Positions 29,031 to 44,683 are shown, counted from the stretch's first letter. The stretch: DNA of 64,000 nucleotides from Anaerolineales bacterium (GCA_016927115.1 JAFGNH010000080.1:1492-65491); one strand, 5' to 3'. Notes: generated by a model from the letters alone, not told the origin. Made by a program: numbers and translations.

Positions 29031-29473
29031 AATCAGTTCCAGATAATGTACAGCAGCAGTTTGCTTCCATCTTTCCTTCAGCCTGCCAGGGGATACGGGT
29101 TCTGCAACTGCTGCGGAAATAGTATCCCAACCCCAAAGCCGGGCGAGCAGGGTAAAGATGAATTTATCAGATCACCCCTGGGGGACTTTTTCCTCTGAGC
29201 TTTCAGCGGCACGGCAAACTTTCACACCAGCAGTCCCGCCATATTAACAATACGTTTTCTGTATCCTTCGTCAGGCCGGTATTCGGCTATTTTTTTCCCC
29301 TGGATTTCCTTCTGGAATTTTTTGTGAATACGGTGTTTGCGGACACTATTTCGCAGTTTGATAATGGGGGATAATTATTCTTTTTCGACCCTGGAGGAGA
29401 ATTCTCCAGACAATCTGCTGTATGATGTCAGGTAAAGTGTGGGTACATGTGAGCTTTTGAATAAGGAGGGTAG

Positions 29474-30099
29474 AATTTTCTTACGAATGCCACAATGATA
29501 AGCAGGAATCCAGAAGGAGAGATTAGCGCAAACGTGGCAGTCCTTATCAAAGTGACCATTTTGCAGCAGCAGGGAAAACGAAAGATCTTACTGGAAGATT
29601 CCCCTCAGAAAAAATCTAAAACTGCCAGGGAAACGTGCTTCTACCGGGACTGATTGACACTCATGTGTACAAGGCTCAGGCGTTGATCCGGGAGATGTGT
29701 ATGGTAAGCTATCTGGCAAAACTGCGTGTGCAAGAGCCAACTATGGTGCCTGCAGAAGCAGTTTTGGAGATGGCGACGATCAATGGGTCGAAAGCGATGG
29801 GGTTGGAAGGTCAGATCGGCTCTAACGAGGTTGGTAAGAAGGCCGACTTTATCATTATCGATATGGATAAACCGCATCTTACACCGGCTCCGGATCCTGT
29901 CTCGACAATTGTGTATGCCGCCCATGGCAGCGATGTGGATACCGTGGTCATCGATGGAAGGTCGGTGATGAAACATCGTGAAGTACAAACGTTGGATGAG
30001 CAGTCTATTTTATCTGATGCCCGCAGGCGTTTCCCGGAAGTGAAAAAGCGGGGTGGACTTGATATCAGCCCGCGCTGGCCTGTGGTGCAGCTGTCGTAG
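29474..30099 (+). pseudogene. Decayed amidohydrolase (MtaD/SsnA/cytosine-deaminase-like) gene: frameshifted N-terminus plus a large internal deletion
   Basis: One frame (29474..) reads NFLTNATMISRNPEGEISANVAVLIK, the N-terminal beta-sandwich of metal-dependent amidohydrolases. It is preceded by a TAG and lacks a start codon. A second frame (29635..30099) reads VLLPGLIDTHVY (a degenerate HxH motif), then only about 25 residues later reaches the C-terminal AVLEMATINGSKAMGL...GKKADFIIID...VDTVVIDGRSVM. The total is about 200 codons. Confidence 0.55.
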
Positions 30100-30121
30100 A
30101 ATCTCCAGAAAAAGTAATCAA

Positions 30122-30156
30122 CGCTCTGTTTTAGCTTTACCAGCCAATACAGAGCG
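30122..30156. terminator. Hairpin between convergent genes (possible bidirectional terminator)
   Basis: cgctctgt (30122..30129) pairs with acagagcg (30149..30156). On the minus strand it is followed by a T-rich stretch. It lies downstream of the last gene of the nine-gene operon. Confidence 0.35.
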
Positions 30157-30213
30157 CTGATGTTTCCCCGGGATTCAGCTGTAGTTGCTATGTACCAGAG
30201 ATCAAGGGACAGC

Positions 30214-30402
30214 TTAGACAATCCCTACACAGCTAAGGAAGAACCAGATCATAAAGGGGGCACCGGTGGAGAGAGCCGTCAGGAGGAACGCTGCCAGCGG
30301 CTGATTGTGTTTTCTGTAGATCAGCCTGGATAGAACGCCCAGGCAGATCAGCAGAATCAGCAGTTCCAGGATTATTAATAAAGGCGGTATTTGCATCATC
30401 AT
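30214..30402 (-). CDS. Small membrane protein (about 62 aa, 2 TM helices)
   Basis: I shortened the 123-aa ORF to the ATG at 30402 (MMMQIPPLLIILELLILLICLGVL...), which lies 2 nt after the upstream stop. The rest of the long ORF overlaps the upstream gene. Confidence 0.45.
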   Translation of the reverse strand: MMMQIPPLLIILELLILLICLGVLSRLIYRKHNQPLAAFLLTALSTGAPFMIWFFLSCVGIV

Positions 30403-30404
30403 GA

Positions 30405-30875
30405 CTATCCTCCCAGCAGAAGAAAGAGCAGTGTCCACACAGCAGCTGAAGCGAGTATGGTGCCTGCGAAACGCCGCCGGCTGTCCAGCTTGCAGCGATG
30501 CCGCAGCACTGCTGCAAACAACACCCCACCCCCCAGGTTGACCAGGAGCAGTCCCCAGAACCCTATGAAGAGTTCCATAAACCACGCTGCAGGAAGGATC
30601 ATAAAGCTGAAGATCAACGTAACCCAGAAAGGGCTTTTCCAGCCGGGGGTATCAGTCTCCGGTGGTTCTGATATTTCTTCCATATCAGCGAAACTCACGC
30701 TGGATGGTGTCGGGAAGGCGGCAGGATCAAGCTGCGTGGGTGCCTGCGTATTGAAGGATGAATCTGCAGGCAGTTCTTCTGTTGAAGACAGTTTTTTTCC
30801 ACAAAACCCGCAGAAAACGGCGTCGGAAGGAATTGCACTCCTACAGAAAGGGCAGAAATGCTGAGCTTGCTTCAT
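30405..30875 (-). CDS. Zinc-ribbon membrane protein
   Basis: 156 aa. It has an N-terminal CPFC-x11-CGFCG zinc ribbon, an acidic linker, then 3-4 TM helices. Confidence 0.7.
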   Translation of the reverse strand: MKQAQHFCPFCRSAIPSDAVFCGFCGKKLSSTEELPADSSFNTQAPTQLDPAAFPTPSSVSFADMEEISEPPETDTPGWKSPFWVTLIFSFMILPAAWFMELFIGFWGLLLVNLGGGVLFAAVLRHRCKLDSRRRFAGTILASAAVWTLLFLLLGG

Positions 30876-30927
30876 GATCGTTTCTCCATTACAGAACTCA
30901 TTTCCTGTTCACAGCGGGCTGCAGTTC

Positions 30928-32547
30928 TTATTCTGCCTGCTGCTGAATGTCTGAACTGATGAACCGGCGGGCCAGTGTATGGGCAGAAAAGTACATTGCC
31001 AGGGTTGTAACAAGCGGTGTGAGCCAGATCCATATTTCGAACCATACGTCTCCCAGGCTGAAACCGAAATTGAATCTGCTGAATTCGATAAGGTAATTTC
31101 CAACGGGAGTGGCCAGAGCGAAAGCGGCCCCCCAGAAAAGACCCAGCCAACCAGCCAGTTTCCAATCAGGTTTACGGGGGTTCAACAGGACAACAGTGCC
31201 TGCAGCTGACAGTCCCATGCATAAGAATGACACCAGAGACCAGGACATGTTGGGAGGCAGGTGCCAGCTCCATTCCACGCCGAGCCAGACACGAAGCATG
31301 GACAGGACTACCCACAGCAGCACAGTGCCGCCCATCAGCGGAAGGCTGATCCGGGTGAACTGGCGGATGGCAATCAGTGTGAAGATGCCACCGATGAGGC
31401 CCATAGCAGCGAAAGGCCATACATAATGCATATCAGTTAAGGCAAAGAGTGAGGTGATAACAAGCTCTGCCAGAGCCCAGCCGAGGAAAACCAGGCCAAG
31501 GCTGCTCCATAGTCGCCTGGTGTCGGGCTTTTTCTGCTCTTTTTCAGCAGCCAGTGAGTCGTTCAAAAGCCAGACCAGAAAGGCCCCCAGGAGTATTCCC
31601 ATAAGACCGTACGCTACAAGCGAACCAACATGGATAGCGCGTGCTCTGATACGAAACAGGGGAAACCAGCCGGAGAGCAGGATATACGCAAGGATGAACA
31701 TTCCTGTTATCCCGGTTGCCAACCAGCTGAGTCCCAATCCGAGTGCTTTGCCCCACTGCCGGGACCTGCCGAAGAGGAACAAGCCAAGTACAAGCCCTGC
31801 AACGCCTGGAATCGCGCCTTCGAACAGCATGGATCGCAGCTCCCAGTTAAAATACATTAATGAGTAGCCAATGTTGATCATTGCATACCAGAGAAATGTA
31901 AGGATCAACGTGCCTGCTGCTGCCTGCCACCAGTGTGTCAACCAGCCGTAAAGCCTGAGCAGGATGCAAATTACCCCGCTTGAAAAAAAGCCTAGTACAG
32001 TAAAGAACAGGACAAGGTCGAGGGCAACAATTTGCTTATGGGCCAGGTAGCCTGCAGCACTGCCCAGCATGGTTCCAAGGCCGGTGATCAGTACAATCCA
32101 TCCCGGCATAACCCCCGGTTTTACCGGGGTGCTTTTACGTTCTTTCTTGCGCCGCAGCTCACGCAGTTCCTTCTCCGGAGCTGTCTGCTTCTTCTCCGAT
32201 TTTGATTTTTCCAGTGCATGCCCGCATTCGATGCAGAAGCGTGCATCCACCATATTCATTTTTCCGCACTGCGGGCAGACGGTTCCACCCTGCAGTGATG
32301 GTGGAGGTGCTTCCTCCATCACCTGGGTTGGTGTATCTGCACGATCGATCCGTGTGACTGCATCCATATCAATATCGGGAGGAGAGGCTCCGGCCGGTGG
32401 GGTTTCTGATTGGGCCGGCTGCTGATCTAGTGTTTCTGTATCTGCGTCTATTCCGGGTATTTCCGATGAGGGCGAAAGCCGGGCTCCGCAGTATCCGCAG
32501 AACAGCTTGTCATCCGGGATTTCCTTGTTGCAGTTTGGGCATATCAT
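30928..32547 (-). CDS. Double zinc-ribbon polytopic membrane protein
   Basis: 539 aa. It has CPNC-x11-CGYCG and CPQC-x11-CIECG ribbons, a basic linker (RELRRKKERK), then about 12 hydrophobic helices. Confidence 0.75.
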   Translation of the reverse strand: MICPNCNKEIPDDKLFCGYCGARLSPSSEIPGIDADTETLDQQPAQSETPPAGASPPDIDMDAVTRIDRADTPTQVMEEAPPPSLQGGTVCPQCGKMNMVDARFCIECGHALEKSKSEKKQTAPEKELRELRRKKERKSTPVKPGVMPGWIVLITGLGTMLGSAAGYLAHKQIVALDLVLFFTVLGFFSSGVICILLRLYGWLTHWWQAAAGTLILTFLWYAMINIGYSLMYFNWELRSMLFEGAIPGVAGLVLGLFLFGRSRQWGKALGLGLSWLATGITGMFILAYILLSGWFPLFRIRARAIHVGSLVAYGLMGILLGAFLVWLLNDSLAAEKEQKKPDTRRLWSSLGLVFLGWALAELVITSLFALTDMHYVWPFAAMGLIGGIFTLIAIRQFTRISLPLMGGTVLLWVVLSMLRVWLGVEWSWHLPPNMSWSLVSFLCMGLSAAGTVVLLNPRKPDWKLAGWLGLFWGAAFALATPVGNYLIEFSRFNFGFSLGDVWFEIWIWLTPLVTTLAMYFSAHTLARRFISSDIQQQAE

Positions 32548-32618
32548 GATAGTCTCTTCTCCTGATTAAAATCTGTAAATCACACCGGTTCCTGCTGCCG
32601 GATTCCATATTCTATTTA

Positions 32619-34034
32619 TCAGAATTCTATACCAATTGTGCCGTCAGTTTTGATAAACATGTCACCGCCTTCAAAATCCGGCCGGCTGCCGTCGTGCCAT
32701 ACCATTGTGCCATCCCCTAAAACTTCATCAGGCGGCGGGATTTCTGGGCGGGTATCGTAGCTGCTGTAGTCGGAATCTCCGCTGCCCTGTCGGTCTTCGG
32801 CGTCGATGATCATGTCTATCGGAATAGCTGAAGCAGGCAGAGCCGGGATCTCGCCAGGTTCACCATCAGAAATATCACCTGCAGGGGGAGTGTAATCGTC
32901 CTGGATCATATCAATCGGGATGATATCAGCAGGAAGGACGTTTACAGGATACTCTTCGTCATCCGCAGTACTTCTCCTGTCACTATCCTTGACAGTATCT
33001 CCACCACTGAGATAAGAATCGGCGACAGAAGCGCCAATGGGGACAATAACCTGCAAGGAGCTTAATACCAGATCACCCAAGCCGGCGAAGGTGCGCATGG
33101 TGGGGAAAGTCAGTTTCTCTCCTGTTAGTTCCTCTGCCGTCTCTGCAAGGATCTCATCTGTCAGGGCTGTGTTTGGATCGAGGTTTTTAAGCCGGATCTG
33201 ATTCTCAGAAAGCTCTGGTGCAGCGCGGTCAAGGTTATCAGATCCCATATCTGATGCGGATCCGGATGAGGTTTCAGGAGTGCCGGGATTTTCCTGGCCA
33301 GTTTCGATTTCCGATGAATCCGGAGCAGGTATTGCAGCAGTTTCAAGAGGCTGCTGTGCTGCCCCGCCGCTGTTTTGTACCACAAATAGACCGGATTCGC
33401 TCTTAAGTACAAGGGGCGGGATCGTGGCTTCAAGGACAACAGAAAGGGGTTCTGCACCTGACTCAAGGGTGGGGATATCCAGGGTCTGTCCCGGGAAAAT
33501 CGTACCAGGGTTGTCACCGATAATACTTCGGTTGGCTTCGTGGATCAGCGGCCATAGTTCGGCGCGGCCGTAATAGCGCAGTGCCAGGCTGGACAGCATC
33601 TCACCCTCGGCGACCGTATGTTCCGTCAGGATAGTTCGTTCCAGCTTGGGCGTTTCAGCCGATTCCGGGACAGTTTCATCCTGGCGGCTGAGGTAAATCT
33701 GTTCTACAGGACTGTTTTCACGAATAAGCTTTGATGCCTCGCTTTTTTCGAAAACGGGGATCTCCTTGAGCGGGTCCTGTAAGCCTTTAACAAACGCTTG
33801 CGGCTCTGTTTCGACTGAATCAAGGTATTCCTGGAAGGCGCCCTTGAAGGCTTCAACAAGGTTCTCTAAAAGTGATGTGAATAATGTCTGGATTGCTTCA
33901 GCGTTGGAGTAATCGAGGATTCTCTCCAGGAAAGAACCGGGTTCATGGTTCAAATCATCCAGCTCGCTGCTTTCCAGCGAACCGCTATCAAATGTCTCCA
34001 TCGGGTCAACAAGTGAAAAAATATCGTCGTTCAT
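32619..34034 (-). CDS. Leaderless LysM-domain protein (short paralog)
   Basis: The LysM domain is HTVAEGEMLSSLALRYYGRAELWPLIHEANRSIIGDNPGTIFPGQTLDIP. The N-terminal segment EPGSFLERILDYSNAEAIQTLFTSLLENLVEAFKGAFQEYL is homologous to the N-terminus of the 1096-aa protein. The protein ends in GTIGIEF and has no signal peptide. I preferred the ATG at 34034 (AGGA upstream). The ORF-track GTG at 34058 is an alternative. Confidence 0.8.
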   Translation of the reverse strand: MNDDIFSLVDPMETFDSGSLESSELDDLNHEPGSFLERILDYSNAEAIQTLFTSLLENLVEAFKGAFQEYLDSVETEPQAFVKGLQDPLKEIPVFEKSEASKLIRENSPVEQIYLSRQDETVPESAETPKLERTILTEHTVAEGEMLSSLALRYYGRAELWPLIHEANRSIIGDNPGTIFPGQTLDIPTLESGAEPLSVVLEATIPPLVLKSESGLFVVQNSGGAAQQPLETAAIPAPDSSEIETGQENPGTPETSSGSASDMGSDNLDRAAPELSENQIRLKNLDPNTALTDEILAETAEELTGEKLTFPTMRTFAGLGDLVLSSLQVIVPIGASVADSYLSGGDTVKDSDRRSTADDEEYPVNVLPADIIPIDMIQDDYTPPAGDISDGEPGEIPALPASAIPIDMIIDAEDRQGSGDSDYSSYDTRPEIPPPDEVLGDGTMVWHDGSRPDFEGGDMFIKTDGTIGIEF

Positions 34035-34089
34035 CTTTCTTTCCTTTGTTCGCTCCACCTTGCATGTGAAACAAAGAGTGCGAAACCGA

Positions 34090-34824
34090 CTATATTGCAG
34101 GTGCCTCCTCTTTTTTCTGGCTGAGATGGCGGATCAGGAGCTGGTTGGCAGCCTGGAACTGTTTCAGTTCCTCAGATGGGAATGGGAACCGTGCGTTCGC
34201 CATACCCAGGACCAGCAGGCAATATGCCAGGTTACCCAGATGAGCTGATGAAATGTAGGCCTGGGTGATCCCCAGCGAACGCCAAAGATGAGCTAACGCG
34301 AATCGCCAGGTTGTTTGCAGCGGATCCTGCTCTTTTTCCGGCTTTGCGGCGTTTTCTTCCAGCATCTGATGCAGGAGCGAGTAGTCCGGATGGCTGATGA
34401 GCACGAAGTGCCCGTAGCGGCAGGGAGCTGCACAGTATTGGCAGCCCCGGGATTTCCTGAGGCGGTTCTGTTCGCTTGATCGACCGGGTGAACCGGCCAG
34501 GAGCGCCATCAAGGTGCTGAATACCCAGGCAGCACGTGGAGACTGGTGGGCAAGCCGGGCTGAGTGCGTGAGAGTTCCTGCAAACCTCTCATTGGGAGTC
34601 TGCTTTGCCAGGTAGAATTCGATGATTTTTTGGCAGGCCTCGGGAACTGTTTCAGCAAAGTATGCTGGAGTTTTCAATCCGGCGCGCTGAGCCAGTGCCT
34701 GGCGCAGCGGTCCTCCGGCCTGTTTGAAGTTATAGATATGCTCCGGCGGGCAGAAAGACAGAAGGTGCAGATAACTCGCTGTTTGCTGCAATCCCTGGGG
34801 AAGATGTTTTTCTGTTTGAGTCAT
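34090..34824 (-). CDS. Cys-rich protein of unknown family (paralog of 38237..38953)
   Basis: 244 aa with AGGAGG upstream. Blocks conserved with its paralog are SYLHLLSFCPPE, RGCQYCAAPCRYGHFVLIS and HLGNLAYCLLVLGMANARFPFP. Confidence 0.7.
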   Translation of the reverse strand: MTQTEKHLPQGLQQTASYLHLLSFCPPEHIYNFKQAGGPLRQALAQRAGLKTPAYFAETVPEACQKIIEFYLAKQTPNERFAGTLTHSARLAHQSPRAAWVFSTLMALLAGSPGRSSEQNRLRKSRGCQYCAAPCRYGHFVLISHPDYSLLHQMLEENAAKPEKEQDPLQTTWRFALAHLWRSLGITQAYISSAHLGNLAYCLLVLGMANARFPFPSEELKQFQAANQLLIRHLSQKKEEAPAI

Positions 34825-34882
34825 ATTTTTCCTCCTCTTAACGCTGTGGTGGAGTCCGAATGAACAGGTCCAACCGGTTTTG

Positions 34883-37800
34883 TTAGAACTCGATAGTCAC
34901 ACCACCGGGTTCCCCGCCGGTTTGAAGGAATTCACGGAGTTCTCCCGAAGGAATCCAGTCATCTTTGATCATGCCGCGCTGGTACAGCTCCTGCATTCGA
35001 TCCAGGCGATTGTCTCCGGCGCCGGCAGTGGTCTGCAGTTTGAAATCGAAATTGATATTAACCAGGTCTTGAAGGCCGAGTTGGAGAAGATCGTCACGAT
35101 TGAGGATATCGTCGCGATTGAGGATGTCATCACGGTTGAGGATATCCCAGCGAACCGTGGTGGGCAGATCAGCATAGTTGAGAATACCTCCCTGACTCGG
35201 GATGCAGATTTCTTTCAGGACTGAGGGCCAGGTTTCTGCGGATGGAAATGCTGCCTCCCGCAGGGAAGAATACAGGCTGGCGGGTATGGCCGATGCCGGG
35301 ATTGCTCCAGCGGCAACTTCCTGGCCGATAAAAATCTTCGTCCATGTGGTAAGCTGGTCGCCGGAAATGTTGTTCGCTATCTCCCTGTAGTCCGAAGTGC
35401 TGAGCCAGCTGAAATCCTTCTCCATCAGGGGAATATATTCGGTGGTGTTAACCCACTGGATCATTTCATTCCGGACACTGGCGGGGATGGCGGAGGCAGG
35501 GATGGCCTGGTTTCTGAGATCGTCAAAGAGCTCCCATTTCATACTGGCGGGAATGGCACTGGCTGGGATGGCACTGATTTTCTCGGCCAGAATGCTGGCG
35601 GGGATAGCGCGGGTGAACTCGTTCATGATGCTGGCGGGTATCGCCCGCGATCCGCCTTCACCGGCATTAAAAATTTCCACCATCAGGCTGGCTGGAATGG
35701 CGGAAGCCGGGATGGCGCTGGCAGGAATAGCGCGGGCAAGGGTTTCAAGCATACTGGCAGGGATTGCATCGGCGCTGAGCTCACCGGTATTCACCATGGA
35801 AATTAGGTCTGACGGACCCAGTGAATTCATCACACTGGCAATCTCTGACCGCAGGCTGGCCGGGATGGCGGAGGCCGGAATGGCTGATTGGATGTCCAGG
35901 AGGATGCTGGCGGGGATGGCGGAAGCTGGAATGGCAGAGGCTGGAATAGCACCAGCATCGATGTCTTTGAAAATCTCGACATATATACTGGCGGGAATTG
36001 CTGATGCCGGGATGGCCGACGCCGGGATGGCGCTGGCGGGTATGGCGCTGGCCGGTATTGCCTCGGCAATCGCCTGTAAAAGGCTGGCTGGAATAGCGGA
36101 AGCCGGGATGGCACTTGCCGGGATGGCCTGGGCCAGGTCCTGCAGGGCACTGGCGGGGATGGCTGAAGCCGGGATCGCTCCGTTTTCAATCCGGTTAAGG
36201 ACGGCTCCGAGGAAATCATCGCGGTTGAGAATATCATCTCGATTCAGGATATCATCGCGGTTGAGAATTTCCATCAGAACGTCAGGATCGAAGGCACCGG
36301 GGTTTACAGGATGGGCATACAGGTCCCCGGCTGCCAGCCGCTCCATCACACCATCGAAGAAGCCTGTGGGGATCTGGTCCAGGGGTACAGAGTTCAGGAT
36401 GTCTACCAGTTTTTCACTGGCGATTCCCTGCAGCAGGAAGGGTTCTTCGGCCGCGATCCGGCACAGCCGCTCATCGGGAAACAGCGAAAGGTATTCTGAG
36501 CTGCTCCAGTTCTTTGCCAGCCAACTGCTGGCGAGCAGCGGGTCCACAAGCGAATCAGTCATATCTGAAACGCTGATCCGTCCATCGTGCAGCGCCTGGG
36601 CGATCTGTTCGTACTGCTTAACCGGCAGCCATTCCGCGTCGTAATCACCCGAACTGATACCGGAGAGCAGGTCGTTCACATCGGCGGGAAGCTGCAGCTG
36701 GCCGCTATCATACAGGTCACGGGCGTAGGAGGGCAAAATCGATGGTTTCAGGCCGTGATTGAGCATCAGATCGTGTATATCCTCGCTGCTCAGCTGCTCA
36801 TCAAAGTACTCCCAGAACCCATCCTGCAGTAAGGCGCAGTTGTCGGGCAATAAAATATCACCTTCGCCGGTGCTGGCACAGGCGGTGATAAACGCACTGA
36901 GGGAATCCCTGTTCATCTGATCGAACGGCATGGCACCGGTCCACACGGCACGGGCGATCCCATCGAGCCTTTCAGGCGGCAGCTCGGAGGGCTGGATGTC
37001 TCCGGAAACAACTCGTTTCATAAAGTTACTTCCCATATCAGGAGCTTCATAGTCGGAAGCGCTGCGCGCCTCGTTGACCACGCCGGTGAGCCCGAAGATG
37101 GTCGTCTTTACACCTTCAGGCGCTTCGGCGGGCATATCGGCTGTATCTTTGGCGGCACCGCCTTCAGCCACTGCTGCAGAAGCACCCGCTTCCGCTGCTT
37201 CTGCACCCGCATCCGCATCCGCTCTATCGCCGGCGGCTTCAGCCGCTTTGCTGACTTCTTCACCCGGTTCGGCAGGCATTATTACCTGTGGTGCTTCAGC
37301 GACTCCACCAGTAACCGAAGCCCGCCCGGGATCCTGGGCAGGGATGGCAGGCGAATCTTCGTTGAAGTCAGGCATTGCATCGGCATCTGCTGGAGCGGTA
37401 TCCGAGACGGCTGCAGTACCAACTGCGGGAGCGGCAGCCTCCACGGGAGCGGCTGTATCTGCTGCTGGTGCAGTCTGCTCAGGGGGCTGGTAGGAAGCTG
37501 TCTCTACCGGCGTGTAGGTGCTCGGTGAGATCACTGTGCCCGGTCCGGGAGATGAGTCCAGTGGAGGGATCACAAATTCCTGCCCGGGATAAATCATGTT
37601 GGGGTTTTCACCAATGACAGCCTGATTGGCTTTATAAATCGCAGACCACATGGCTGCGTTTCCATAATAGTGCAGTGCAAGATGGGAGAGCGTTTCACCC
37701 TCAGACACAGTGTGTTCTGCTGCGGAGCTGGTTTCGACAGGTGTGCGCTGTTCACCCGAATCCGATACAGTACTGGAAGCAGAAGGTGTCTCTGTGAGAT

Positions 37801-38173
37801 GTGTGGATGATGCTCCGGTTGTTTCCACCATCTCCTTTTTAAACTCATCCAGCGCCTTGTCGACAAGTTCCTGGACCTCACTCTCACTGTACAGGTTTTC
37901 CTCATTCTGAAGCGGGGCTTCCAGTTCCTGCTGGAATGCCTCCGTATCGGTATGGACGATCGAGATATACTCCTGGTATGCGTCTTTGACTGCACCAGAG
38001 AGATTTTTTGCCAGGCTGACAAAGAAAGATTGAATGGCTTCAGCACTGACGTAGGAAAGGATGTTCTCAAGAACAGACCCCGGTTCCCTGACTGCCCGGT
38101 CGAGAGTTTCCAGGCCGGTTCCCATTTCTTCTGTAATTTTTGTGTCCTCAATGTGTTTATTCAAGTTGTCCAT
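34883..38173 (-). CDS. Leaderless LysM-domain giant protein with AIPAS and ILNRDD repeat arrays
   Basis: 1096 aa. It has an N-terminal domain shared with the 479-aa paralog, a LysM domain (37565..37714), an Ala/Pro/Glu-rich linker, a unique central domain, and then 27 perfect AIPAS units in 12 clusters bracketed by two ILNRDD triplets. It ends in GGVTIEF. No signal peptide or TM helix is present. Confidence 0.85.
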   Translation of the reverse strand: MDNLNKHIEDTKITEEMGTGLETLDRAVREPGSVLENILSYVSAEAIQSFFVSLAKNLSGAVKDAYQEYISIVHTDTEAFQQELEAPLQNEENLYSESEVQELVDKALDEFKKEMVETTGASSTHLTETPSASSTVSDSGEQRTPVETSSAAEHTVSEGETLSHLALHYYGNAAMWSAIYKANQAVIGENPNMIYPGQEFVIPPLDSSPGPGTVISPSTYTPVETASYQPPEQTAPAADTAAPVEAAAPAVGTAAVSDTAPADADAMPDFNEDSPAIPAQDPGRASVTGGVAEAPQVIMPAEPGEEVSKAAEAAGDRADADAGAEAAEAGASAAVAEGGAAKDTADMPAEAPEGVKTTIFGLTGVVNEARSASDYEAPDMGSNFMKRVVSGDIQPSELPPERLDGIARAVWTGAMPFDQMNRDSLSAFITACASTGEGDILLPDNCALLQDGFWEYFDEQLSSEDIHDLMLNHGLKPSILPSYARDLYDSGQLQLPADVNDLLSGISSGDYDAEWLPVKQYEQIAQALHDGRISVSDMTDSLVDPLLASSWLAKNWSSSEYLSLFPDERLCRIAAEEPFLLQGIASEKLVDILNSVPLDQIPTGFFDGVMERLAAGDLYAHPVNPGAFDPDVLMEILNRDDILNRDDILNRDDFLGAVLNRIENGAIPASAIPASALQDLAQAIPASAIPASAIPASLLQAIAEAIPASAIPASAIPASAIPASAIPASIYVEIFKDIDAGAIPASAIPASAIPASILLDIQSAIPASAIPASLRSEIASVMNSLGPSDLISMVNTGELSADAIPASMLETLARAIPASAIPASAIPASLMVEIFNAGEGGSRAIPASIMNEFTRAIPASILAEKISAIPASAIPASMKWELFDDLRNQAIPASAIPASVRNEMIQWVNTTEYIPLMEKDFSWLSTSDYREIANNISGDQLTTWTKIFIGQEVAAGAIPASAIPASLYSSLREAAFPSAETWPSVLKEICIPSQGGILNYADLPTTVRWDILNRDDILNRDDILNRDDLLQLGLQDLVNINFDFKLQTTAGAGDNRLDRMQELYQRGMIKDDWIPSGELREFLQTGGEPGGVTIEF
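35090..35143 (-). repeat. 3 x 18-bp in-frame repeat encoding ILNRDD-ILNRDD-ILNRDD (C-terminal copy)
   Basis: The units are atcgtcacgattgaggat, atcgtcgcgattgaggat and gtcatcacggttgaggat. They are identical as peptide and differ at synonymous sites. Confidence 0.9.
35276..36178 (-). repeat. Coding repeat region: 27 AIPAS pentapeptide units (15 bp each) in 12 clusters separated by short amphipathic spacers
   Basis: Read directly from the sequence. For example, gctggcgggtatggc reverse-complements to GCC ATA CCC GCC AGC, cgatgccgggattgc to GCA ATC CCG GCA TCG, and tgaagccgggatcgc to GCG ATC CCG GCT TCA. The cluster sizes are 2,3,5,3,2,1,3,1,1,2,2,2. Confidence 0.9.
36215..36268 (-). repeat. 3 x 18-bp in-frame repeat encoding ILNRDD-ILNRDD-ILNRDD (N-terminal copy)
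   Basis: The units are atcatcgcggttgagaat, atcatctcgattcaggat and atcatcgcggttgagaat. It lies immediately upstream (in protein terms) of the AIPAS region. Confidence 0.9.
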
Positions 38174-38236
38174 GAGTACCTCGAGCGTTCTTATTGGCAG
38201 ATGCAGTGTCAGTGGTGTGTGTTGGTTCCTGTCGGG

Positions 38237-38953
38237 TCAAACGTGTGCGGCGTTGGCCGGCCAGCCGGCAATCAGGGCCTGGTTCCACTCCTGAAAAGAA
38301 GCCAGTTCGGATTCGGGAAACGGGAGGCGGGATTTGGCCATGGCCAGAACCAGCAGGCAGTAGCTCAGGTTTCCCAGGTGGTACGGGCTGATGTACCCCT
38401 GCCGGGTTCCCAGAGTTCGCCACAGATGACTGGTAGTAAAAGACCAGGTGGCTTTGAGCGTGCCGCCGGGGTCCCTGCTGTTTTCGTGCTGCTCAAGCAG
38501 TTTCTGCAGCAGGGTGTATTCAGGCCGTGAAACGAGCACGAAAAATCCATAACGGCAGGGTGCCTGGCAAAACTGACAGCCGCGTGACGGGCGCAGCCGT
38601 TTGTTTTTTTCCGTCCGGGAGGGCAGGGAGCAGATGCGGTCCATCTGCTGTTGAAACAGATAGGCGGCTTCAGGGCTTTCCTGTGCAGTTTGTGCAGCCC
38701 GGCTTAAATCATTTTTTAGCTTTTGATCCGGGATGGGCAGGCGCTGGTGGAAAGCAGTGATACGGCGGCATGATTCAGGGATTGTGCGTGCGAAAAATTC
38801 CGCCTCCGGCAGGTCCGCCTGCAGAGCCAATCCACTGCGGAGAGGAAGGCCTGCCTGTGCAAGAGCATGAATCTGGTCCGGCGGGCAGAAGGAAAGAATG
38901 TACAGGTAGCTGATAGAGGCTTGTATTTCCTGCACGGTGAGAGAATCAGCCAT
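38237..38953 (-). CDS. Cys-rich protein of unknown family (paralog of 34090..34824)
   Basis: 238 aa with GGAG upstream. The conserved blocks are SYLYILSFCPPD, RGCQFCQAPCRYGFFVLVS and HLGNLSYCLLVLAMAKSRLPFP. Confidence 0.7.
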   Translation of the reverse strand: MADSLTVQEIQASISYLYILSFCPPDQIHALAQAGLPLRSGLALQADLPEAEFFARTIPESCRRITAFHQRLPIPDQKLKNDLSRAAQTAQESPEAAYLFQQQMDRICSLPSRTEKNKRLRPSRGCQFCQAPCRYGFFVLVSRPEYTLLQKLLEQHENSRDPGGTLKATWSFTTSHLWRTLGTRQGYISPYHLGNLSYCLLVLAMAKSRLPFPESELASFQEWNQALIAGWPANAAHV

Positions 38954-39004
38954 GGGGTTTTCTCCTTCAAACGATACGGTGGAGGCTGGTTATCGGGTGG
39001 TTCA

Positions 39005-41803
39005 CTACCGTTCCAGCCGCGGCATCGGTGTGTAGAATATTTTGGTCCAGGAGGGCATATCATCCTGGAAGCCTGCAATGATCGCCTGGCCGACTTTCAG
39101 GCGGGCGATGACTTCAGCCTGTTCTTCCTTGAGAGCCAGTGTGCCGGCCATGGTCTGGCGGTCATCAGCGGCGACAAGGCGATGAATGATCTTGAGATTG
39201 GTATTCTTGAGCGCATCGGGCACCAGTTTGGCAGGCACCTGGTCGATAATGGCAAGGCCCTGGCCGTAGGCACGTATTTCCGCGAGGATGTCGGCAAACA
39301 TCTCGCCCATCTTGGCTTGTGGGTTGGCACCGTAGGCAGTCTGAGGCGCCGCACGCAGGATGCGGTGCGCCTCTTCAAAGATGGCCAGGTGGCGCAGATC
39401 ATGCGATTCAGGGGACCCTTCCAGTTCATGCTGTGCCTGACGGTATTCGTACATGAAGTTCAGCAGCAGTGCCATGGTGAGGCACTTGTCGGCATCATCG
39501 CCCATCTGCTGCAGGTTGATTACGACCGGCCGGTCGAACAGGTCTGCCCAGGGGGTGGACTGCTGGCAGTTGAAGGTTTTTCCCTTCCAGCCGCGCAGCA
39601 GGCTGCCAATTCGTGTACGCAGGGCGGCGGTAATATTATCGGTGATACGCTGTTCGTACCCCTTGGATTTCACCAGATCAGAAATTCGATCATAGAGGTT
39701 TTCAAGAGTCGGGCAGCACACACCTGCCGGAGGCAGTTTATCCTGTAGCCATCCCTGGCTGTCATAGAGATCGACCAGGGCTTCTTCGAGAATGACGGGC
39801 AGGATCTCCTGCATCGGAAAGCTGGCGTTGAAGATAGACCGCAATCGGTCCAGGTGCGGCATCACCTGGGCTGTTGCATCCGGCAAACGGACAATGTCGA
39901 ACGGGTTAAGCTGCAGACTGTTGAGTTTCTCGCTGCCCCATTCCGTCCGTCCGGGCATATACACTGCTATTTTGCGATCAAAGGTGCCGGCCTGGTTATA
40001 GGCCAGTGCAAGCTGGACGTATTCCTCTTTCGCAGGTTCAATCACCATGAAGTTGACGTTTCGCTGCATCAGCTCTGAGATCAGCCGGCGGCAAGTATTG
40101 GATTTACCGCTGCCGGTGATTCCGGTGACGAAAACATGCCGCGTGAGTGAATTCAGATCCACTTCATAGGTGAGGTTCCCAACTTCTTCTCCGCCGTCCA
40201 GTATGGCGCCAAGCCGGATCGGATTTTCTTCCTTGCATATGGTGGGCGGGTTCAGGCTGAAACTGGCTGTGGGTTGAACAGGCAGCCCGGGCAGTTCACG
40301 CAGGGGAAGATTCGCGTACAGGGAGAGTTCTTCGGTGTTCAACAGAGTGGTCAGGTTTTCAAAGGCTTCCCCCAGCGGGTGGTGTACACGGTTTGCACTA
40401 TCCGGGGCGAACAGGCGCAGCGGAGGCTGTCGGAAAGCATCCAATGATACCTGGACTTGCCCATCCCAAACAGGATGCAGGTCATGGACCCGGATGGGTT
40501 CAAAGGCGCTTTTTTCACCGCTGACCAGGGCTTTCAGTTGTGATTGGGCCTGGGCGGTGGTTTCAGCCTGATCGCTCATGAGATACACCCCGACATTCCA
40601 GCAGCCCTTGCCGCGGGCAATTTCGAAGCGGGTGACGGTTTCCTGGAGAAGCTGTTCACAGGCTTCGGCGTGTTTGTTGAGGTATTCACGGCCGAAGGAA
40701 AGCGACTCGCTGGAGGATGTGCTTTCGGTGTCGGTGGTGCCGGCGGTCTCGCCGCGGGTCTGTCCGATTGAGCTTGAGGTGCCGCTGGAGGTGGAAGTAG
40801 AGGAAGAGGGCAGCAGCTGGCCGAACATACCCAGCATTCCCGATAGGGCGAAGCCACCCGCCAGCGGGATCATCAGCGCGCCGGCACCGGCCAAACCGAG
40901 TGCCTTCAACCCCTTCCCCACACCGCTGGAATCTGACAGAGCGGTTCCCAGGGCACCACGGCTGCGGCTTTCACTTGAACCGGTGGTGGTGCCCTCCGTC
41001 TCCGATGTAGAACTGCTGTAGCTGACAGAACGGGCGGAACTTTGGGAGGAACTGTCGCTGGTGCTGCGCTGAATGGTGGCTTTCGTAAAAGCGTGGATCT
41101 GGCTGGAAAGGGTACGGCAGTCGTGGATGATCTGGTTTACGCTGCTCTCAGGAACAGGATTGGCAAGTACCATGTACAGGTAGGGTTTACCGCGCAAGCC
41201 GCGCATGAACTGATCAAGGCTCTGGGGGTAGTCCGACGGTTTATCGGATTCGATGGGAGAAGGGATACCCGTGAACGAACGGGCAAAGCGGTATTCACTG
41301 AGAGGAATATGGATTTTACGGACGATCTCGTTGTAATCAGAAACGGCTTTAACCCTGGTCCCGGGCCAATTGGAACACAGGAACTGGCCGAGCTGGTCGG
41401 CAAACAGGCGCGGCTGCCCTCCCGGTGCTTGCGTCAGGATACCGATATAGATATCTGAGCGGAATCCATCGCTACTGATAAGGAACAGCAGGGAATAGCG
41501 CGGGTCGTGGCAGGCAGCAAGGGTGGTCTGGATGGCGCGCAGGTTCCTGGAGAAATCCTCGCTGACAGGCTGGCCAACCTGTTCCAGATGGAAAAAGGCC
41601 ACATCAGGAGGGGGAGGTGGTGCTTCCTCAAGCACACGGACATAGTTGGCGTCGAAGATGGGGCCGTCCAGATAGTTCCTGCTGAGAGCGAACAGCATTG
41701 CGCGTGAAATCAAGTCCCCGGTCGTGGTCAGCATTTCAACCGGAAGCTGATCCAATGGTTCCAGGTCTGTTGGGGCGGGTTCAATGGAGTGGTTCTCTGT
41801 CAT
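39005..41803 (-). CDS. HerA/FtsK-superfamily P-loop ATPase (DUF87-like) with a novel N-terminal domain and a Ser/Thr-rich, Gly-rich hydrophobic insert
   Basis: 932 aa. It has Walker A VTGITGSGKSNT, Walker B HLAIFEEAHRIL and the C-terminal NTNLKIIHRL. Residues ~246-369 (40697..41068) are Ser/Thr low complexity. They flank GLKALGLAGAGALMIPLAGGFALSGMLGMFGQLL, a probable membrane segment. Confidence 0.8.
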   Translation of the reverse strand: MTENHSIEPAPTDLEPLDQLPVEMLTTTGDLISRAMLFALSRNYLDGPIFDANYVRVLEEAPPPPPDVAFFHLEQVGQPVSEDFSRNLRAIQTTLAACHDPRYSLLFLISSDGFRSDIYIGILTQAPGGQPRLFADQLGQFLCSNWPGTRVKAVSDYNEIVRKIHIPLSEYRFARSFTGIPSPIESDKPSDYPQSLDQFMRGLRGKPYLYMVLANPVPESSVNQIIHDCRTLSSQIHAFTKATIQRSTSDSSSQSSARSVSYSSSTSETEGTTTGSSESRSRGALGTALSDSSGVGKGLKALGLAGAGALMIPLAGGFALSGMLGMFGQLLPSSSTSTSSGTSSSIGQTRGETAGTTDTESTSSSESLSFGREYLNKHAEACEQLLQETVTRFEIARGKGCWNVGVYLMSDQAETTAQAQSQLKALVSGEKSAFEPIRVHDLHPVWDGQVQVSLDAFRQPPLRLFAPDSANRVHHPLGEAFENLTTLLNTEELSLYANLPLRELPGLPVQPTASFSLNPPTICKEENPIRLGAILDGGEEVGNLTYEVDLNSLTRHVFVTGITGSGKSNTCRRLISELMQRNVNFMVIEPAKEEYVQLALAYNQAGTFDRKIAVYMPGRTEWGSEKLNSLQLNPFDIVRLPDATAQVMPHLDRLRSIFNASFPMQEILPVILEEALVDLYDSQGWLQDKLPPAGVCCPTLENLYDRISDLVKSKGYEQRITDNITAALRTRIGSLLRGWKGKTFNCQQSTPWADLFDRPVVINLQQMGDDADKCLTMALLLNFMYEYRQAQHELEGSPESHDLRHLAIFEEAHRILRAAPQTAYGANPQAKMGEMFADILAEIRAYGQGLAIIDQVPAKLVPDALKNTNLKIIHRLVAADDRQTMAGTLALKEEQAEVIARLKVGQAIIAGFQDDMPSWTKIFYTPMPRLER

Positions 41804-41830
41804 CAGGAAGCCTTTCAGCGATAGGCCGGC

Positions 41831-43402
41831 TCAGTCCTGAGCAAGCCGGTAGCGGATCGATCCGATGCGGATTTCATCTCCCTGGCGGAAGATGGTTGGC
41901 TGCTGTGGTGCAATACAGGCAGCGTTGAGATATGTTCCATTCGTGCTGCCCAAATCCACCAGGTAGAAAACCTCGCCATCTTTCCTGATTTCTGCATGGA
42001 AGCGGGAGGCCAGATCATCTTTGACCCAGACATCATTCCGGCTTTTCCTGCCGAGGGTTGTGATTCCTTTTATAAGCGGGTATTTCTCTCCGTTTTCCGA
42101 GACAAGATACCAGGCCTCCTGTTTGTTTTCGTCGGACGAGGCAAATGAAATGGTGGGCTGAGGTGCCGGGGTTTTTAAGGAAGAGCGGTTTTGTGAAATG
42201 CCGTATTCGAGTGCAACGCCTTTTACGACAATTTCCTCGGGGTTATCGGAGAGAAGGATTCGATCTTCGCCGAACTGATCGCGCAGGTGACGTACGATGG
42301 TAAACAGCTGTGAACCGCCACCCACCAGAACCACCTGATGGATATCCTCTATAGTGATTCCCATCGACTTGAGTGCGTTTGAGATCAGGTATTCAAAATC
42401 CGCAATCAGGTGGCGGGCGATACCCAGAAATGTGTCTTCCTCGAGCTGCACGGTGCTGCGAAATACGGAACCATCCCGCATAACCACGGTTATAGTACGC
42501 CTTGGTGTATGGAAGGTGCCGCTGGAGTTGAGCAGCTGGCGGCTCAGCGATTCTTTTAATTTACGGGCAGCATTACGCAGCGATATCAGTGCTGTGGGGT
42601 CATCTGCCAGAGCGTGTGCAGGAATTTCAAGTTTTTCAATGAGGTATTTTGCCAGTTCTGCATCATATAATCCGCCCCCGTGAGGTTCCCCGTAGTGGTG
42701 GGTGAATTCAATCTCTCCGGTCCGGGGATTGACTTTTCCGGCGACCATATCAGTTGTGCTTCCGCCGACATCAGCGATCAGGGTAAGGCCTTCAGGCCTG
42801 TCAGACTGCAGAAGTCCCTGGTGATACAGGCTGAGAATAGCTCCTTCAGGTTCCGGAATAAAGCGAATGCGTTCATGCATTGGTGGTTCGAAACAGGCAA
42901 GAATAATCTGTTTGAAGTCGTTAAGAATGCTGCCATCGTAGCCGAACTGCCAATAGACGGGATAGGCAAAGGAAAATCGGATCTGGTTGTTGAAAGGTTT
43001 GTTATACCATTTTTCTTCCTGAAGTTGATTCAAGACAGATTGCAGCAGCATACTGGTGTACGTCAGCGCCTGGTTATGCGTATAACGTTTCTGGTGCGGG
43101 AGGGGCGTTTTTTGCAAATGGGCTCCGATACATGGTTTGAAGTATTCGCGGATTCTTTCACGCACGTCCTCCTGGTCCATCTGTTGTGAAACGGTTTCGC
43201 CGTAGCTTTCAAGTGCTGTTCCGTCTGCGTTCATAAGCAGGGCGGCGGGGAGGTGACGGTCATAGAAGCTTGTGAGGGGGGAAGGCTGCGGATCGCTGAG
43301 CATATGAATGGAGTTTTGCTGGTGGAGATACTCCACGCGGTAAAGACGCCAGTTCGTTGCTCCACAGTCAAAGGCGAAAAGCGTTTCCTGTTGTCCGGTC
43401 AT
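41831..43402 (-). CDS. Hsp70/actin-fold ATPase fused to a C-terminal FHA domain
   Basis: 523 aa. The sugar-kinase/Hsp70/actin motifs are FAFDCGATNWR (phosphate-1), IADVGGSTTD (phosphate-2) and VVLVGGGSQ (adenosine). There is no Hsp70 substrate-binding domain. The C-terminal FHA is TLGRKSRNDVWVKDDLASRFHAEI...LVDLGSTNGTYLN...GDEIRIG. Confidence 0.8.
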   Translation of the reverse strand: MTGQQETLFAFDCGATNWRLYRVEYLHQQNSIHMLSDPQPSPLTSFYDRHLPAALLMNADGTALESYGETVSQQMDQEDVRERIREYFKPCIGAHLQKTPLPHQKRYTHNQALTYTSMLLQSVLNQLQEEKWYNKPFNNQIRFSFAYPVYWQFGYDGSILNDFKQIILACFEPPMHERIRFIPEPEGAILSLYHQGLLQSDRPEGLTLIADVGGSTTDMVAGKVNPRTGEIEFTHHYGEPHGGGLYDAELAKYLIEKLEIPAHALADDPTALISLRNAARKLKESLSRQLLNSSGTFHTPRRTITVVMRDGSVFRSTVQLEEDTFLGIARHLIADFEYLISNALKSMGITIEDIHQVVLVGGGSQLFTIVRHLRDQFGEDRILLSDNPEEIVVKGVALEYGISQNRSSLKTPAPQPTISFASSDENKQEAWYLVSENGEKYPLIKGITTLGRKSRNDVWVKDDLASRFHAEIRKDGEVFYLVDLGSTNGTYLNAACIAPQQPTIFRQGDEIRIGSIRYRLAQD

Positions 43403-43864
43403 GCAGGTTCCCTATGAAGAAAGTTACAATGATGAACGACAATCTGCTGCAAATCTCTCATAACTGTCCGGAAATTTCGGTTGTTGTTCTTGACCAGATT
43501 TTGTGTGGCGTAGCAGGGTACCTGCAATAATAATCAACCTGATGGATGAAGGGGAGACGGTGGGTAGTGAGCCCGGGGTATAGGGTTGTATGCAATTCAG
43601 TAAGGCCACGCGTTTTACCTGGATAAACGACAATCAATCTATTCCGATCTGAATTAGTACGTATGGGCAAAATCATAGTCCTGTTTGGTGTAGATGGCAA
43701 ATTCAGGATACCTGATTTTTACCGAATAGTGGTTTTAGTGAAGGTTTTGTGTAAGGTTGTGAGGAATCCTGGAAAAAAATATATCAGATATTGGTTGAAT
43801 TAAACGAAATGAACAAAATAAATTGTGGGTCTGCTGTGAGGTGGAATCTGCCTTTCATGGGGAG

Positions 43865-43902
43865 AAAAAAGGATTCAGGCACTTGATTTTATGCCTGAAT
43901 CC
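43865..43902 (-). terminator. Rho-independent terminator of the DsbA-like gene
   Basis: A perfect 10-bp stem, ggattcaggc (43871..43880) with gcctgaatcc (43893..43902), and a 12-nt loop. It is followed on the minus strand by TTTTTT (43865..43870). Confidence 0.6.
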
Positions 43903-43927
43903 GGGTTATTAGGTGAGGATGTTTAGG

Positions 43928-44683
43928 TTACTCGGCGGACAGTTCGCTGTCAATAATGGCGTAAAACTGTTCCAGCGGTGCAGCCCCTATAAGCGGAATA
44001 CCATTGATGAAGAAGACCGGTGTGCCGCGGGCGCCAAGTGCAGCCACGAATTCGGCATCTGCAATGATTTCGCTATTGTGGGTCTCACCGGCGAGGCATT
44101 CACTGAATTGATTCGCGTCCAGGTTCAGGTCTTCGGCATATTGAGTATATGCTTCTGTTCCCAGTGCCATTCGGCCGGAATACAGCAGATCGTGATATTC
44201 CCAGTACATATCCTGATCGCCGGCACAGTTGGCTGCAACAGCGGCATCAAGAGAGGTTTGACCGAGGATTGGAAAATCCCGGTAGACAAACTGGATCTGC
44301 CCCGGATACGTGTCCAGAAGGGCCTGGAAGGATTCAGTGTGAAACTTGCGGCAGTAACCGCAGTTATAATCGCCGAATTCAATAAGCTGAATGGGCGCAT
44401 CAGACGGGCCAAACACGGGATCATCGTCGGCATCGACAGGGAACCGCTGTATTTCACCTGGTTCGGTTGTGGGGATTACAGCAGCGGCGTTCTCTGCAGG
44501 AGCCTGCGCGGTCTGCTCTCCGGTAGAATCCATACCCCAGATTGCGTAACCGATGAGTACACCAATCAACAGAGCAACAGGCAGCATCAGGTACAGCTTC
44601 CGGTTTGGATCAGGTGCAGGAGCTTCGTTGGGTGCCTCGTGATCCGTTTCAAGCAAATTAAGGTCTTCTTTGTATTCTTCCAT
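43928..44683 (-). CDS. DsbA-family thiol:disulfide oxidoreductase, membrane-anchored
   Basis: It has an N-terminal TM helix (LMLPVALLIGVLIGYAIW), the thioredoxin-fold active site FGDYNCGYCRKFH, and a C-terminal GTPVFFING. Confidence 0.8.
   Translation of the reverse strand: MEEYKEDLNLLETDHEAPNEAPAPDPNRKLYLMLPVALLIGVLIGYAIWGMDSTGEQTAQAPAENAAAVIPTTEPGEIQRFPVDADDDPVFGPSDAPIQLIEFGDYNCGYCRKFHTESFQALLDTYPGQIQFVYRDFPILGQTSLDAAVAANCAGDQDMYWEYHDLLYSGRMALGTEAYTQYAEDLNLDANQFSECLAGETHNSEIIADAEFVAALGARGTPVFFINGIPLIGAAPLEQFYAIIDSELSAE

Follow-up and report, generated by a model that had tools for sequence, protein, structure and literature searches.

A candidate leader-dependent export system built on a HerA-type ATPase in Anaerolineae

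Why should a bacterium encode, in one closely spaced run of genes, an actin/Hsp70-fold protein with a forkhead-associated (FHA) domain, a HerA-type ATPase, two large LysM proteins each preceded by a small Cys-rich protein, and zinc-ribbon membrane proteins? The run occupies positions 30214-43402 of a 64,000-nucleotide stretch of DNA from an Anaerolineales bacterium (GCA_016927115.1 JAFGNH010000080.1:1492-65491), called the window here and numbered from its first nucleotide. The original prediction, made from this sequence alone, was of a nine-gene candidate system for envelope export or assembly. Our computational analysis upholds that the system is undescribed, that its core is syntenic and that an adaptor pairs with cargo; a conserved channel protein was not found across the loci compared, and export is what we infer from the parts. 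We propose an undescribed, leader-dependent export or delivery system that follows a logic resembling type VII secretion and is restricted to Anaerolineae, a proposal that we regard as evenly poised between right and wrong.

A conserved trio and its motif-bearing cargo

Judged by gene order and profile matches, the conserved system is a trio of genes, for an Hsp70-FHA protein, a HerA-type ATPase and a small protein with a cysteine motif (the Cys-motif protein), together with cargo genes that share an N-terminal motif, and it is restricted to Anaerolineae. Searching 185,579 species genomes for the Cys-motif protein turned up 35 loci, all in metagenome-assembled genomes (MAGs) labelled Anaerolineae, Anaerolineales or Chloroflexota; with a second locus in the window's own genome, the locus of one relative and two metagenome contigs, these form a comparison set of ~38 loci. 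The order Hsp70-FHA, ATPase, Cys-motif protein is kept in ~31 loci from Anaerolineae MAGs, which bears out the expected synteny for this core, and the exceptions are contig ends, split genes and secondary cargo arrays in genomes or contigs that have the trio elsewhere. As a nine-gene system the prediction has to be narrowed: the first three genes are conserved with motif-bearing cargo, and the last three are specific to this locus. Among 41 related genomes, the Cys-motif protein, the cargo motif profile and the N-terminal domain of the ATPase (N-domain) occur in the same three; the N-domain profile also matches a fourth genome (G027), more weakly, and a same-genus genome that is 75% complete has none of the three. 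Because related genomes are not independent samples, we claim no statistical association; what the distribution shows is that the trio and its cargo are an accessory, co-inherited module.

Downstream of the Cys-motif protein gene, each locus carries one to ~8 cargo genes. The usual layout is a single Cys-motif gene followed by several cargo genes, and the paired Cys-motif and cargo genes of the window are exceptional. The downstream genes cluster weakly with one another and initially did not cluster with the window's LysM proteins. They share a motif of ~37 aa, LDDATxEPxxxVEQxGD[YF]xQ[AS]EA[VI], for which a hidden Markov model (HMM) converged on 96 open reading frames (ORFs) with the consensus AEEQELDDATHEPGARVEQTGDYEQAEAVETALTEVV. 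Two Glu residues are present in 96/96, with Thr in 89/96, Pro in 87/96 and Tyr or Phe in 83/96, and the motif starts 20-40 residues from the first Met in almost all cargo. Past the motif, mean column identity falls to 9%. Cargo proteins range from 137 to ~1470 aa and are acidic (D+E 21%), rich in Pro (9%) and Gly, and depleted of Cys (0.1% vs 1.0% genome-wide); proteins exported by Gram-positive-type bacteria are known to be poor in cysteine. A hydrophobic N-terminal segment is absent in 93/96 cargo, and a short ATPINLP-type motif is found in 36/96 cargo as compared with 6/24,837 other ORFs. Among 56 cargo scanned, credible Pfam domains are limited to LysM (4/56) and the PF14407 module, which is like the leader of ribosomally synthesized and post-translationally modified peptides (RiPPs; 6/56). 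Matches to Big_1, MG4, Imm1, WW, NlpE, DUF4585 and others contained no single significant stretch and were rejected as repeat or low-complexity artefacts. In several loci, lipoprotein genes with a lipobox are interleaved with the cargo genes; none belongs to a known immunity family.

Both LysM proteins of the window carry the motif. In cargo 1 (1096 aa) it spans aa 22-54 (nt 38012-38110; HMM E 7e-8) and is followed by LysM at aa 154-203, an acidic, Pro-rich linker, and 27 AIPAS and 6 ILNRDD repeats; in cargo 2 (479 aa) it spans aa 29-63 (nt 33870-33974; HMM E 1e-11), with LysM at aa 147-196. That LysM is present in both large proteins, as first read, is confirmed by NCBIfam (1e-9 for the 479-aa and 3e-12 for the 1096-aa protein); the Pfam cut-off of 20.9 bits is passed only by the 479-aa protein, at 21.7 bits, with the 1096-aa protein just below it at 20.8. 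Since only short DNA tandem arrays are detectable in the cargo 1 gene, its repeats are suggested to be kept at the protein level. The AIPAS and ILNRDD copies are spaced by short helical segments, and the same repeats occur in the G013 orthologue.

Proteins A (238 aa) and B (244 aa), encoded by genes 3 and 5, are paralogues with 45-48% identity and had no family match in profile searches. Protein A carries the motif G-C-x2-C-x3-C-R-Y-G at aa 125-136, plus C199; in the family alignment C126, C129, C133, C199 (...Y-C-L-L), R113, R119 and R209 are invariant. The family is small, with only 45 clusters in a collection of 5.8 billion proteins and 60 hits, each listed one matching the whole or a part of this ~240-residue profile, in an exhaustive search of 1.84 billion representatives. 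An AlphaFold (AF2) model is all-alpha and confident (pLDDT 91, pTM 0.89), and it resembled nothing closely in Foldseek against the PDB (best E 0.3), a shape search of the ESM Atlas (TM <=0.35) or a wide VIA search (best Z 5.4); a feature search of the structure atlas returned nothing.

When the Cys-motif protein was modelled with the first 110 residues of cargo, as the original prediction had suggested for the Cys-rich protein and the LysM N-terminus, the complex scored ipSAE 0.88, 0.86 and 0.88 against 0.15 for the best control. The mark used for this score is reached by 58/80 solved complexes and 2/110 mismatched pairs, counts that hold only roughly because our own alignments were used. The runs share at least 76% of contacts, and the partner has a pLDDT of at least 72. 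In the contacts with the lowest error, cargo residues 44-52, comprising the invariant Glu and the helix that follows, meet adaptor residues 149-153 and 201-216, beside invariant C199 and R209. These models support, and do not prove, that the Cys-motif protein is the reader of the cargo motif and binds it in a conserved groove. The earlier idea of accessory proteins paired with leaderless, wall-binding cargo is strengthened by the cargo motif and the modelled adaptor binding; LysM and strict pairing do not extend to the family.

Further copies of these elements lie elsewhere in the same genome (G000), which has five motif-bearing ORFs besides those of the window. A second, partly decayed copy of the system (L009; G000 contig C136, 1-10425) has intact Hsp70-FHA and ATPase genes, one split Cys gene, ATPase fragments at 1978-2511, a second Cys gene at 1203-1955, and two cargo genes. 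This copy suggests that the Cys-plus-cargo module has been duplicated and recombined. Orphan cargo genes with the motif, away from either trio locus, are found at C85:932-3661, C100:2771-3184 and C201:1-495; the 909-aa C85 product has tandem beta-rich repeats of the type DGS.VVVDENGKPV..PP. In six related loci (L036, L037, L039, L040, L041, L043), the neighbours of the cargo arrays include three radical SAM genes and genes for an M16 peptidase, an extracytoplasmic function (ECF) sigma factor, a protein with two FHA domains, a polytopic membrane protein and small precursors of the PF14407 (Frankia) type, and some cargo in the L036-L043 set end with a PF14407 module and a core AVWRDLNPGGL.Y.L.YKIP.

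Layout and components of the locus

The features of the operon, all on the minus strand, are as follows.

41831..43402, minus: gene 1, Hsp70 nucleotide-binding domain (NBD) plus FHA protein, 523 aa (ORF table, profile searches)
39005..41803, minus: gene 2, HerA/DUF87 ATPase, 932 aa (ORF table, profile searches)
38237..38953, minus: gene 3, Cys-motif adaptor-like protein A, 238 aa (alignment, AF2 model)
34883..38173, minus: gene 4, cargo 1 with LysM, 1096 aa (profile searches, motif HMM)
34090..34824, minus: gene 5, Cys-motif adaptor-like protein B, 244 aa, paralogue of A
32619..34058, minus: gene 6, cargo 2 with LysM, 479 aa (profile searches, motif HMM)
30928..32547, minus: gene 7, double zinc-ribbon polytopic membrane protein, 539 aa (profile searches, hydrophobicity)
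30405..30875, minus: gene 8, zinc-ribbon protein with 3 hydrophobic segments, 156 aa
30214..30402, minus: gene 9, possible two-helix membrane peptide, 62 aa, uncertain gene (open frame)
43672..43700, minus: promoter-like site, TTGCCA-17-TATGAT (10/12 consensus matches only)
30108..30161 (approx.), minus: terminator-like inverted repeat of 12 bp with one G-T pair, a 21-nt loop and a T-rich tail

The ORF table reproduces exactly the nine co-directional genes first described and their eight intergenic gaps of 27, 51, 63, 58, 31, 71, 52 and 2 nt. The non-coding leader, put at ~520 bp, is a 525-nt gap holding a terminator-like hairpin (43902-43871) that belongs to an upstream gene for a DsbA-like protein and then the promoter-like site (43700-43672), the best scoring in 29400-44200 in a consensus scan. 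The downstream hairpin corresponds to the 12-bp inverted repeat past the last ORF, which was read directly from the sequence, the hairpin scan being limited to loops of at most 8 nt. Rfam and tRNA scans of the operon and leader gave no match.

The 932-aa ATPase consists of a conserved N-domain (aa 1-240), a Ser/Thr-rich region with a Gly-rich hydrophobic hairpin at aa ~297-332 (nt 40808-40915), and a HerA/DUF87 P-loop domain (aa 531-932). Its placement in the HerA/FtsK superfamily is well founded: the DUF87/HerA match (1e-12) scores 49 bits against a cut-off of 23, PDB HerA chains match at E ~1e-9, and neither Walker A (GITGSGKS) nor Walker B (IFEEAH) varies across 31 orthologues. In the same 31 sequences the hydrophobic stretch is near-invariant and its Ser/Thr-rich flanks are variable in sequence. 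The N-domain family comprises 151 clusters, nearly all of ~930 aa, with Chloroflexota names only and no functional annotation, and a feature search of the structure atlas with this domain returned unnamed clusters only. Its model is of low confidence (pLDDT 59); the likeness of that model to ESX-5 and ESX-3 complex chains, which we take to be EccE (VIA Z 8.9 and 7.4), was not used as evidence because Foldseek gave it no backing (E 0.17). NF033849, a serine-rich protein family, produced sub-threshold matches only, on the two ATPases.

Gene 1 was read as an actin/Hsp70-fold ATPase with a C-terminal FHA domain, and profile matches to HSP70 (1e-18) and FHA (4e-19) agree. In the 523-aa protein an Hsp70-type NBD (aa 1-410) is followed by FHA (aa 436-523), which takes the C-terminal place of the missing Hsp70 substrate-binding domain. 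The HSP70 Pfam match spans profile positions 165-377 only, and DnaK/HscA equivalog scores of 55-58 bits, against cut-offs of 650-1000, place the protein outside those families. In 30 orthologues the phosphate-1, phosphate-2 and adenosine motifs are conserved, as are the GR/SR.H/NG phosphothreonine-binding residues of FHA. The family contains 367 clusters, of which all named ones are from Chloroflexota/Anaerolineae and have no functional annotation. A Pkinase protein with one predicted transmembrane (TM) segment and TPR repeats is present in 16/26 loci with a cleanly called trio; in this window no Ser/Thr kinase is adjacent to the operon.

A sister subfamily is found in G027 (L058, G027:C22, 8145-14103) and on a metagenome contig (L062, 1-5731). 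Its ATPase has 40% identity to ours over the motor half and 25% over the N-domain, is longer (1049-1146 aa), has no hydrophobic hairpin and is extended at its C-terminus by a region with a similar Cys motif. Neither locus has a separate Cys-motif protein gene; against the Cys-motif protein profile the extension gave hhalign probabilities of 0.2% (G027), 42% (L062) and 37% (both aligned), which at most hint at a relationship, and a 249-aa protein of G027 had no similarity to that profile. The sister Hsp70-like protein bears three C-terminal TM segments in place of FHA, and because of this replacement anchor the sister loci support a membrane-associated Hsp70-ATPase complex. The product of the next sister gene is very acidic and rich in [FY]-G-D; its G027 version terminates in a nuclease domain of the CdiA-CT EC869 type (Pfam 5e-15; PDB 4g6u, E 0.002), a family known from exported polymorphic toxins (PMC3482391). 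A phylum-wide search with the divergent N-domain matched 2/401 sampled genomes and found no further sister loci. A 792-aa ORF (L064, 2344-4722) with 48% identity to the sister ATPase N-region has no DUF87 match and ends in Por_Secre_tail, a domain for sorting by type IX secretion; this contig could be chimeric.

The zinc-ribbon membrane proteins are local additions in this window. The ribbons originally noted are there, two at the start of the 539-aa protein and one at the start of the 156-aa protein; the TM helices, given as about 12 and 3-4, are counted as at least 9 and as 3 hydrophobic segments. Membership of either protein in the system does not hold, since they are locus-specific and the membrane domain of the 539-aa protein occurs in 0/40 relatives, including two that carry the system. 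Only one other locus (L010) has zinc-ribbon proteins, single-TM ones, downstream, after its LysM cargo. The 62-aa peptide likewise drops out as a system member: it is locus-specific, its reading (30214-30402) is nested in a 123-aa ORF, it has no homologue evidence, and its support is the open frame with two hydrophobic segments.

Directly upstream of the operon lies the gene for a DsbA-like thioredoxin-fold protein (43928-44683, minus), whose terminator-like hairpin, noted above, is strong; it is probably a separate transcription unit. Farther upstream, 45360-47692 (minus) and 48694-50694 (minus) encode a pair of HEAT-repeat proteins and an HdrD-like protein with CCG domains and a 4Fe-4S dicluster, which appear unrelated to the system. 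On the other side, convergent with the operon end, a 154-aa ORF (29635-30099, plus) aligns with no more than the final ~80 positions of the Amidohydro_1 profile and may be a truncated or frameshifted amidohydrolase gene. Among the sequencing runs listed as containing this DNA none is of RNA, and the only one with a full match is a sediment metagenome, which may be its source.

Comparison with known systems

Pfam, NCBIfam and PADLOC searches of the nine proteins gave no assignment to type IV (T4SS), type VI (T6SS) or type VII secretion systems (T7SS) or to a defence system, in keeping with the original view that the locus matches no known secretion, conjugation or defence machinery, and literature searches found no description of this combination of components. 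As far as these tools reach, the module of kinase, FHA-Hsp70, HerA ATPase, Cys-motif adaptor and tagged clients is undescribed.

By analogy, its logic appears closest to type VII secretion. As proposed, the system would share with T7SS a membrane ATPase of the FtsK/HerA superfamily, FHA domains associated with the machine (two of them in EssC), substrates that have no Sec signals and are recognised via a helical N-terminal region, and large, variable, repetitive substrate families encoded beside the motor. T7SS has small dedicated helical partners, of the EspG, Lap and EsaE types, and the Cys-motif protein would be a counterpart. The [YF]-x-[QE]-[AS]-E of the cargo motif recalls YxxxD/E, but it is N-terminal and does not end a WXG-type hairpin. 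Other differences are that FHA here sits on a separate Hsp70-type protein and that the ATPase has a single P-loop domain, of the HerA/DUF87 kind, where T7SS ATPases have three FtsK/SpoIIIE domains; FtsK_SpoIIIE itself matches with 25 bits over 57 residues around Walker A, unlike a tandem EssC/EccC-type protein. WXG100 had no match in the nine proteins or in the 56 cargo, nor did LXG, EssA/B, EsaA or EccB/D/E in Pfam and NCBIfam searches of the locus. Four WXG100 hits above the Pfam cut-off lie elsewhere in the same genome (C140:24692-27993 and C27:47333-47587; L050-L053), so the present system is additional to a T7SS-type family there.

Other known systems share some features. HerA-based anti-phage pairs (SIR2-HerA, DUF4297-HerA) and archaeal HerA-NurA have the same ATPase clade, variable partners and a patchy distribution; in contrast, our locus has no Sir2, DUF4297 or NurA partner, its ATPase has the extra N-domain, Ser/Thr-rich loops and hydrophobic hairpin, its Hsp70-FHA and Cys-motif partners are fixed, and its clients are disordered and acidic with a common N-terminal motif. 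In PADLOC the ATPase gives generic HerA and mad8 only, neither of which amounts to SIR2-HerA or DUF4297-HerA, and the other eight proteins give nothing. Scores for conjugation-type ATPases (TrwB_AAD_bind 15 bits, VirB4_plasma 22 bits) are far below the cut-offs, and no relaxase or VirB protein was found. A Ser/Thr kinase and an FHA protein beside a transport ATPase recall T6SS, which is controlled through PpkA and Fha1/TagH, and an actin/Hsp70-fold protein at the cytoplasmic face of a machine recalls PilM and GspL, platform proteins of type IV pili and type II secretion. However, TagH matches via FHA only (38 bits against a cut-off of 120), Tss, Pil and Gsp parts are absent, and the NBD is closer to DnaK/HscA than to PilM/FtsA.

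Polymorphic toxin systems (Zhang et al. 2012, PMC3482391) offer a further likeness in a constant N-terminal trafficking element, variable C-termini and paralogous cassette arrays; interleaved small genes, here for lipoproteins, could be immunity proteins, and one sister-subfamily protein has the CdiA-CT EC869-like end. The difference is that the 56 main-family cargo scanned contain no recognised toxin or immunity family and that their N-terminal element differs from WXG, LXG, LDxD, PAAR and signal peptides; no Pfam family for the LDxD, LXG and WXG trafficking domains of that survey matched cargo. RiPP clusters of the NHLP/Frankia-peptide type require a PF14407/NHLP leader with enzymes, which is missing from the window and is seen only in the related L036-L043 loci.

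Proposed mechanism, alternative explanations and significance

In the mechanism that we propose, the cargo motif would act as a signal, and the all-alpha Cys-motif protein would, as modelled, bind it in the conserved groove as a receptor or chaperone and hand the cargo to the 930-aa ATPase. This motor would be held at the membrane by its Gly-rich hydrophobic hairpin between Ser/Thr-rich loops and, by comparison with the FtsK/HerA superfamily, a presumed hexamer would thread the acidic, cysteine-poor, largely disordered cargo. The Hsp70-NBD-FHA protein may dock via FHA on threonines that have been phosphorylated by the membrane Ser/Thr kinase often encoded next to the trio; the sites are probably in the Ser/Thr-rich loops of the ATPase, and Hsp70-FHA could gate or assist the motor there. 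In this window the cargo would be the two LysM proteins, and one adaptor paralogue would serve each of them. The most likely purpose, we infer, is export of tagged proteins across the cytoplasmic membrane without Sec. In favour of this reading are the kept gene order, the shared occurrence of trio and motif, the properties of the cargo, the modelled adaptor binding, the near-invariant hydrophobic segment, the kinase with the conserved FHA residues, and an outward-facing context: lipoproteins among the cargo genes, LysM in 4/56 cargo and the CdiA-CT-type end of the sister protein. The fuller claim, that this would be a new type of secretion system with a hairpin-anchored HerA ATPase, an N-terminal signal, a receptor of novel fold and a kinase-FHA-Hsp70 gate, delivering large repertoires of surface or effector proteins that are acidic, disordered and quick to diversify, we put forward tentatively, as somewhat less probable than its contrary.

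Several points weigh against export. Its main weakness is that no conserved polytopic membrane protein accompanies the trio across loci, and a channel would therefore have to consist of the ATPase hairpin alone or come from genes at another site. The 35-residue Gly-rich segment is only a putative membrane span, and HerA-clade ATPases are better known as DNA translocases and partners of defence effectors. Some LysM domains, those of the Kbp/YgaU and phage tail X type, can function in the cytoplasm. Except for LysM and PF14407, matches of cargo to extracellular domains are repeat artefacts, and the scan of 56 main-family cargo recognised no toxin domain.

One alternative is an intracellular role in conflict or defence. 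HerA and Hsp70 would form a sensor or activator complex, and the motif proteins would be effectors or decoys recruited by the Cys-motif adaptor, with thresholding by kinase and FHA. We consider this unlikely. In its favour are an ATPase of the HerA clade with generic matches to defence HerA models, a patchy distribution (3/41 relatives, and 2/401 sampled phylum genomes with the divergent query), multi-copy and diversifying partner genes, a decayed second copy in the same genome, and a restriction endonuclease-fold nuclease domain after the ATPase in the sister subfamily. Anaerolineae are, moreover, filamentous. The idea resembles NTPase-centred systems that Kaur et al. 2020 (PMC7159879) described in multicellular prokaryotes; the Hsp70-containing conflict systems of that study are GTPase/tubulin-centred and differ from the one here. 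Against it, PADLOC recognises no system protein besides generic HerA, the 56 cargo contain no Sir2, DUF4297 or other recognised effector domain, and the long, acidic, disordered, cysteine-free cargo are unlike enzymatic effectors; lipoproteins are interleaved with cargo, the ATPase bears a conserved hydrophobic anchor, and the nuclease domain of the sister locus belongs to the exported CdiA-CT family. A maturation or assembly pathway in the cytoplasm or at the membrane face, with no dedicated export, is quite improbable in our view. In it the motif would be a leader read by the Cys-motif protein much as by a RiPP recognition element, the cargo would be processed, modified or incorporated into a structure of the cell, and other transporters would see to any release. 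The PF14407 module in 6/56 cargo speaks for it, as do the loci where radical SAM enzymes (three), an M16 peptidase and small PF14407 precursors accompany the cargo, and the four invariant cysteines, a possible site for a metal or an Fe-S centre. Against it, most loci, this window included, have no modifying enzymes, cargo of 137 to ~1470 aa with diverse C-termini are unlike RiPP cores, and a 930-aa HerA-type motor with a membrane hairpin is not known from RiPP pathways.

That the nine genes are mere neighbours with no common function is very hard to credit. The lack of conservation of the last three genes with the rest fits that idea, which stands for genes 7-9; for genes 1-6 it is already contradicted by the strict order of the first three genes in ~31 loci, the co-occurrence of trio and cargo motif at the genome level, the specific adaptor-cargo interface in the complex model, and the short same-strand gaps.

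Chloroflexota are abundant in sediments, sludge and soils, and their envelope biology, including export beyond Sec and Tat, is poorly known. The HerA clade has so far been tied to DNA repair, conjugation-like uptake and defence. If the present system is an export machine, it would be a new secretion type on a HerA-clade motor, with a new signal receptor fold and a new secretion signal, defined by its sequence, for which metagenomes can be searched. A large family of unannotated, variable acidic proteins would then be an exported repertoire, possibly serving matrix, adhesion or antagonism in filamentous Anaerolineae. Should the system prove to act inside the cell, a conserved four-part module with interchangeable tagged clients is still a new organisational principle.

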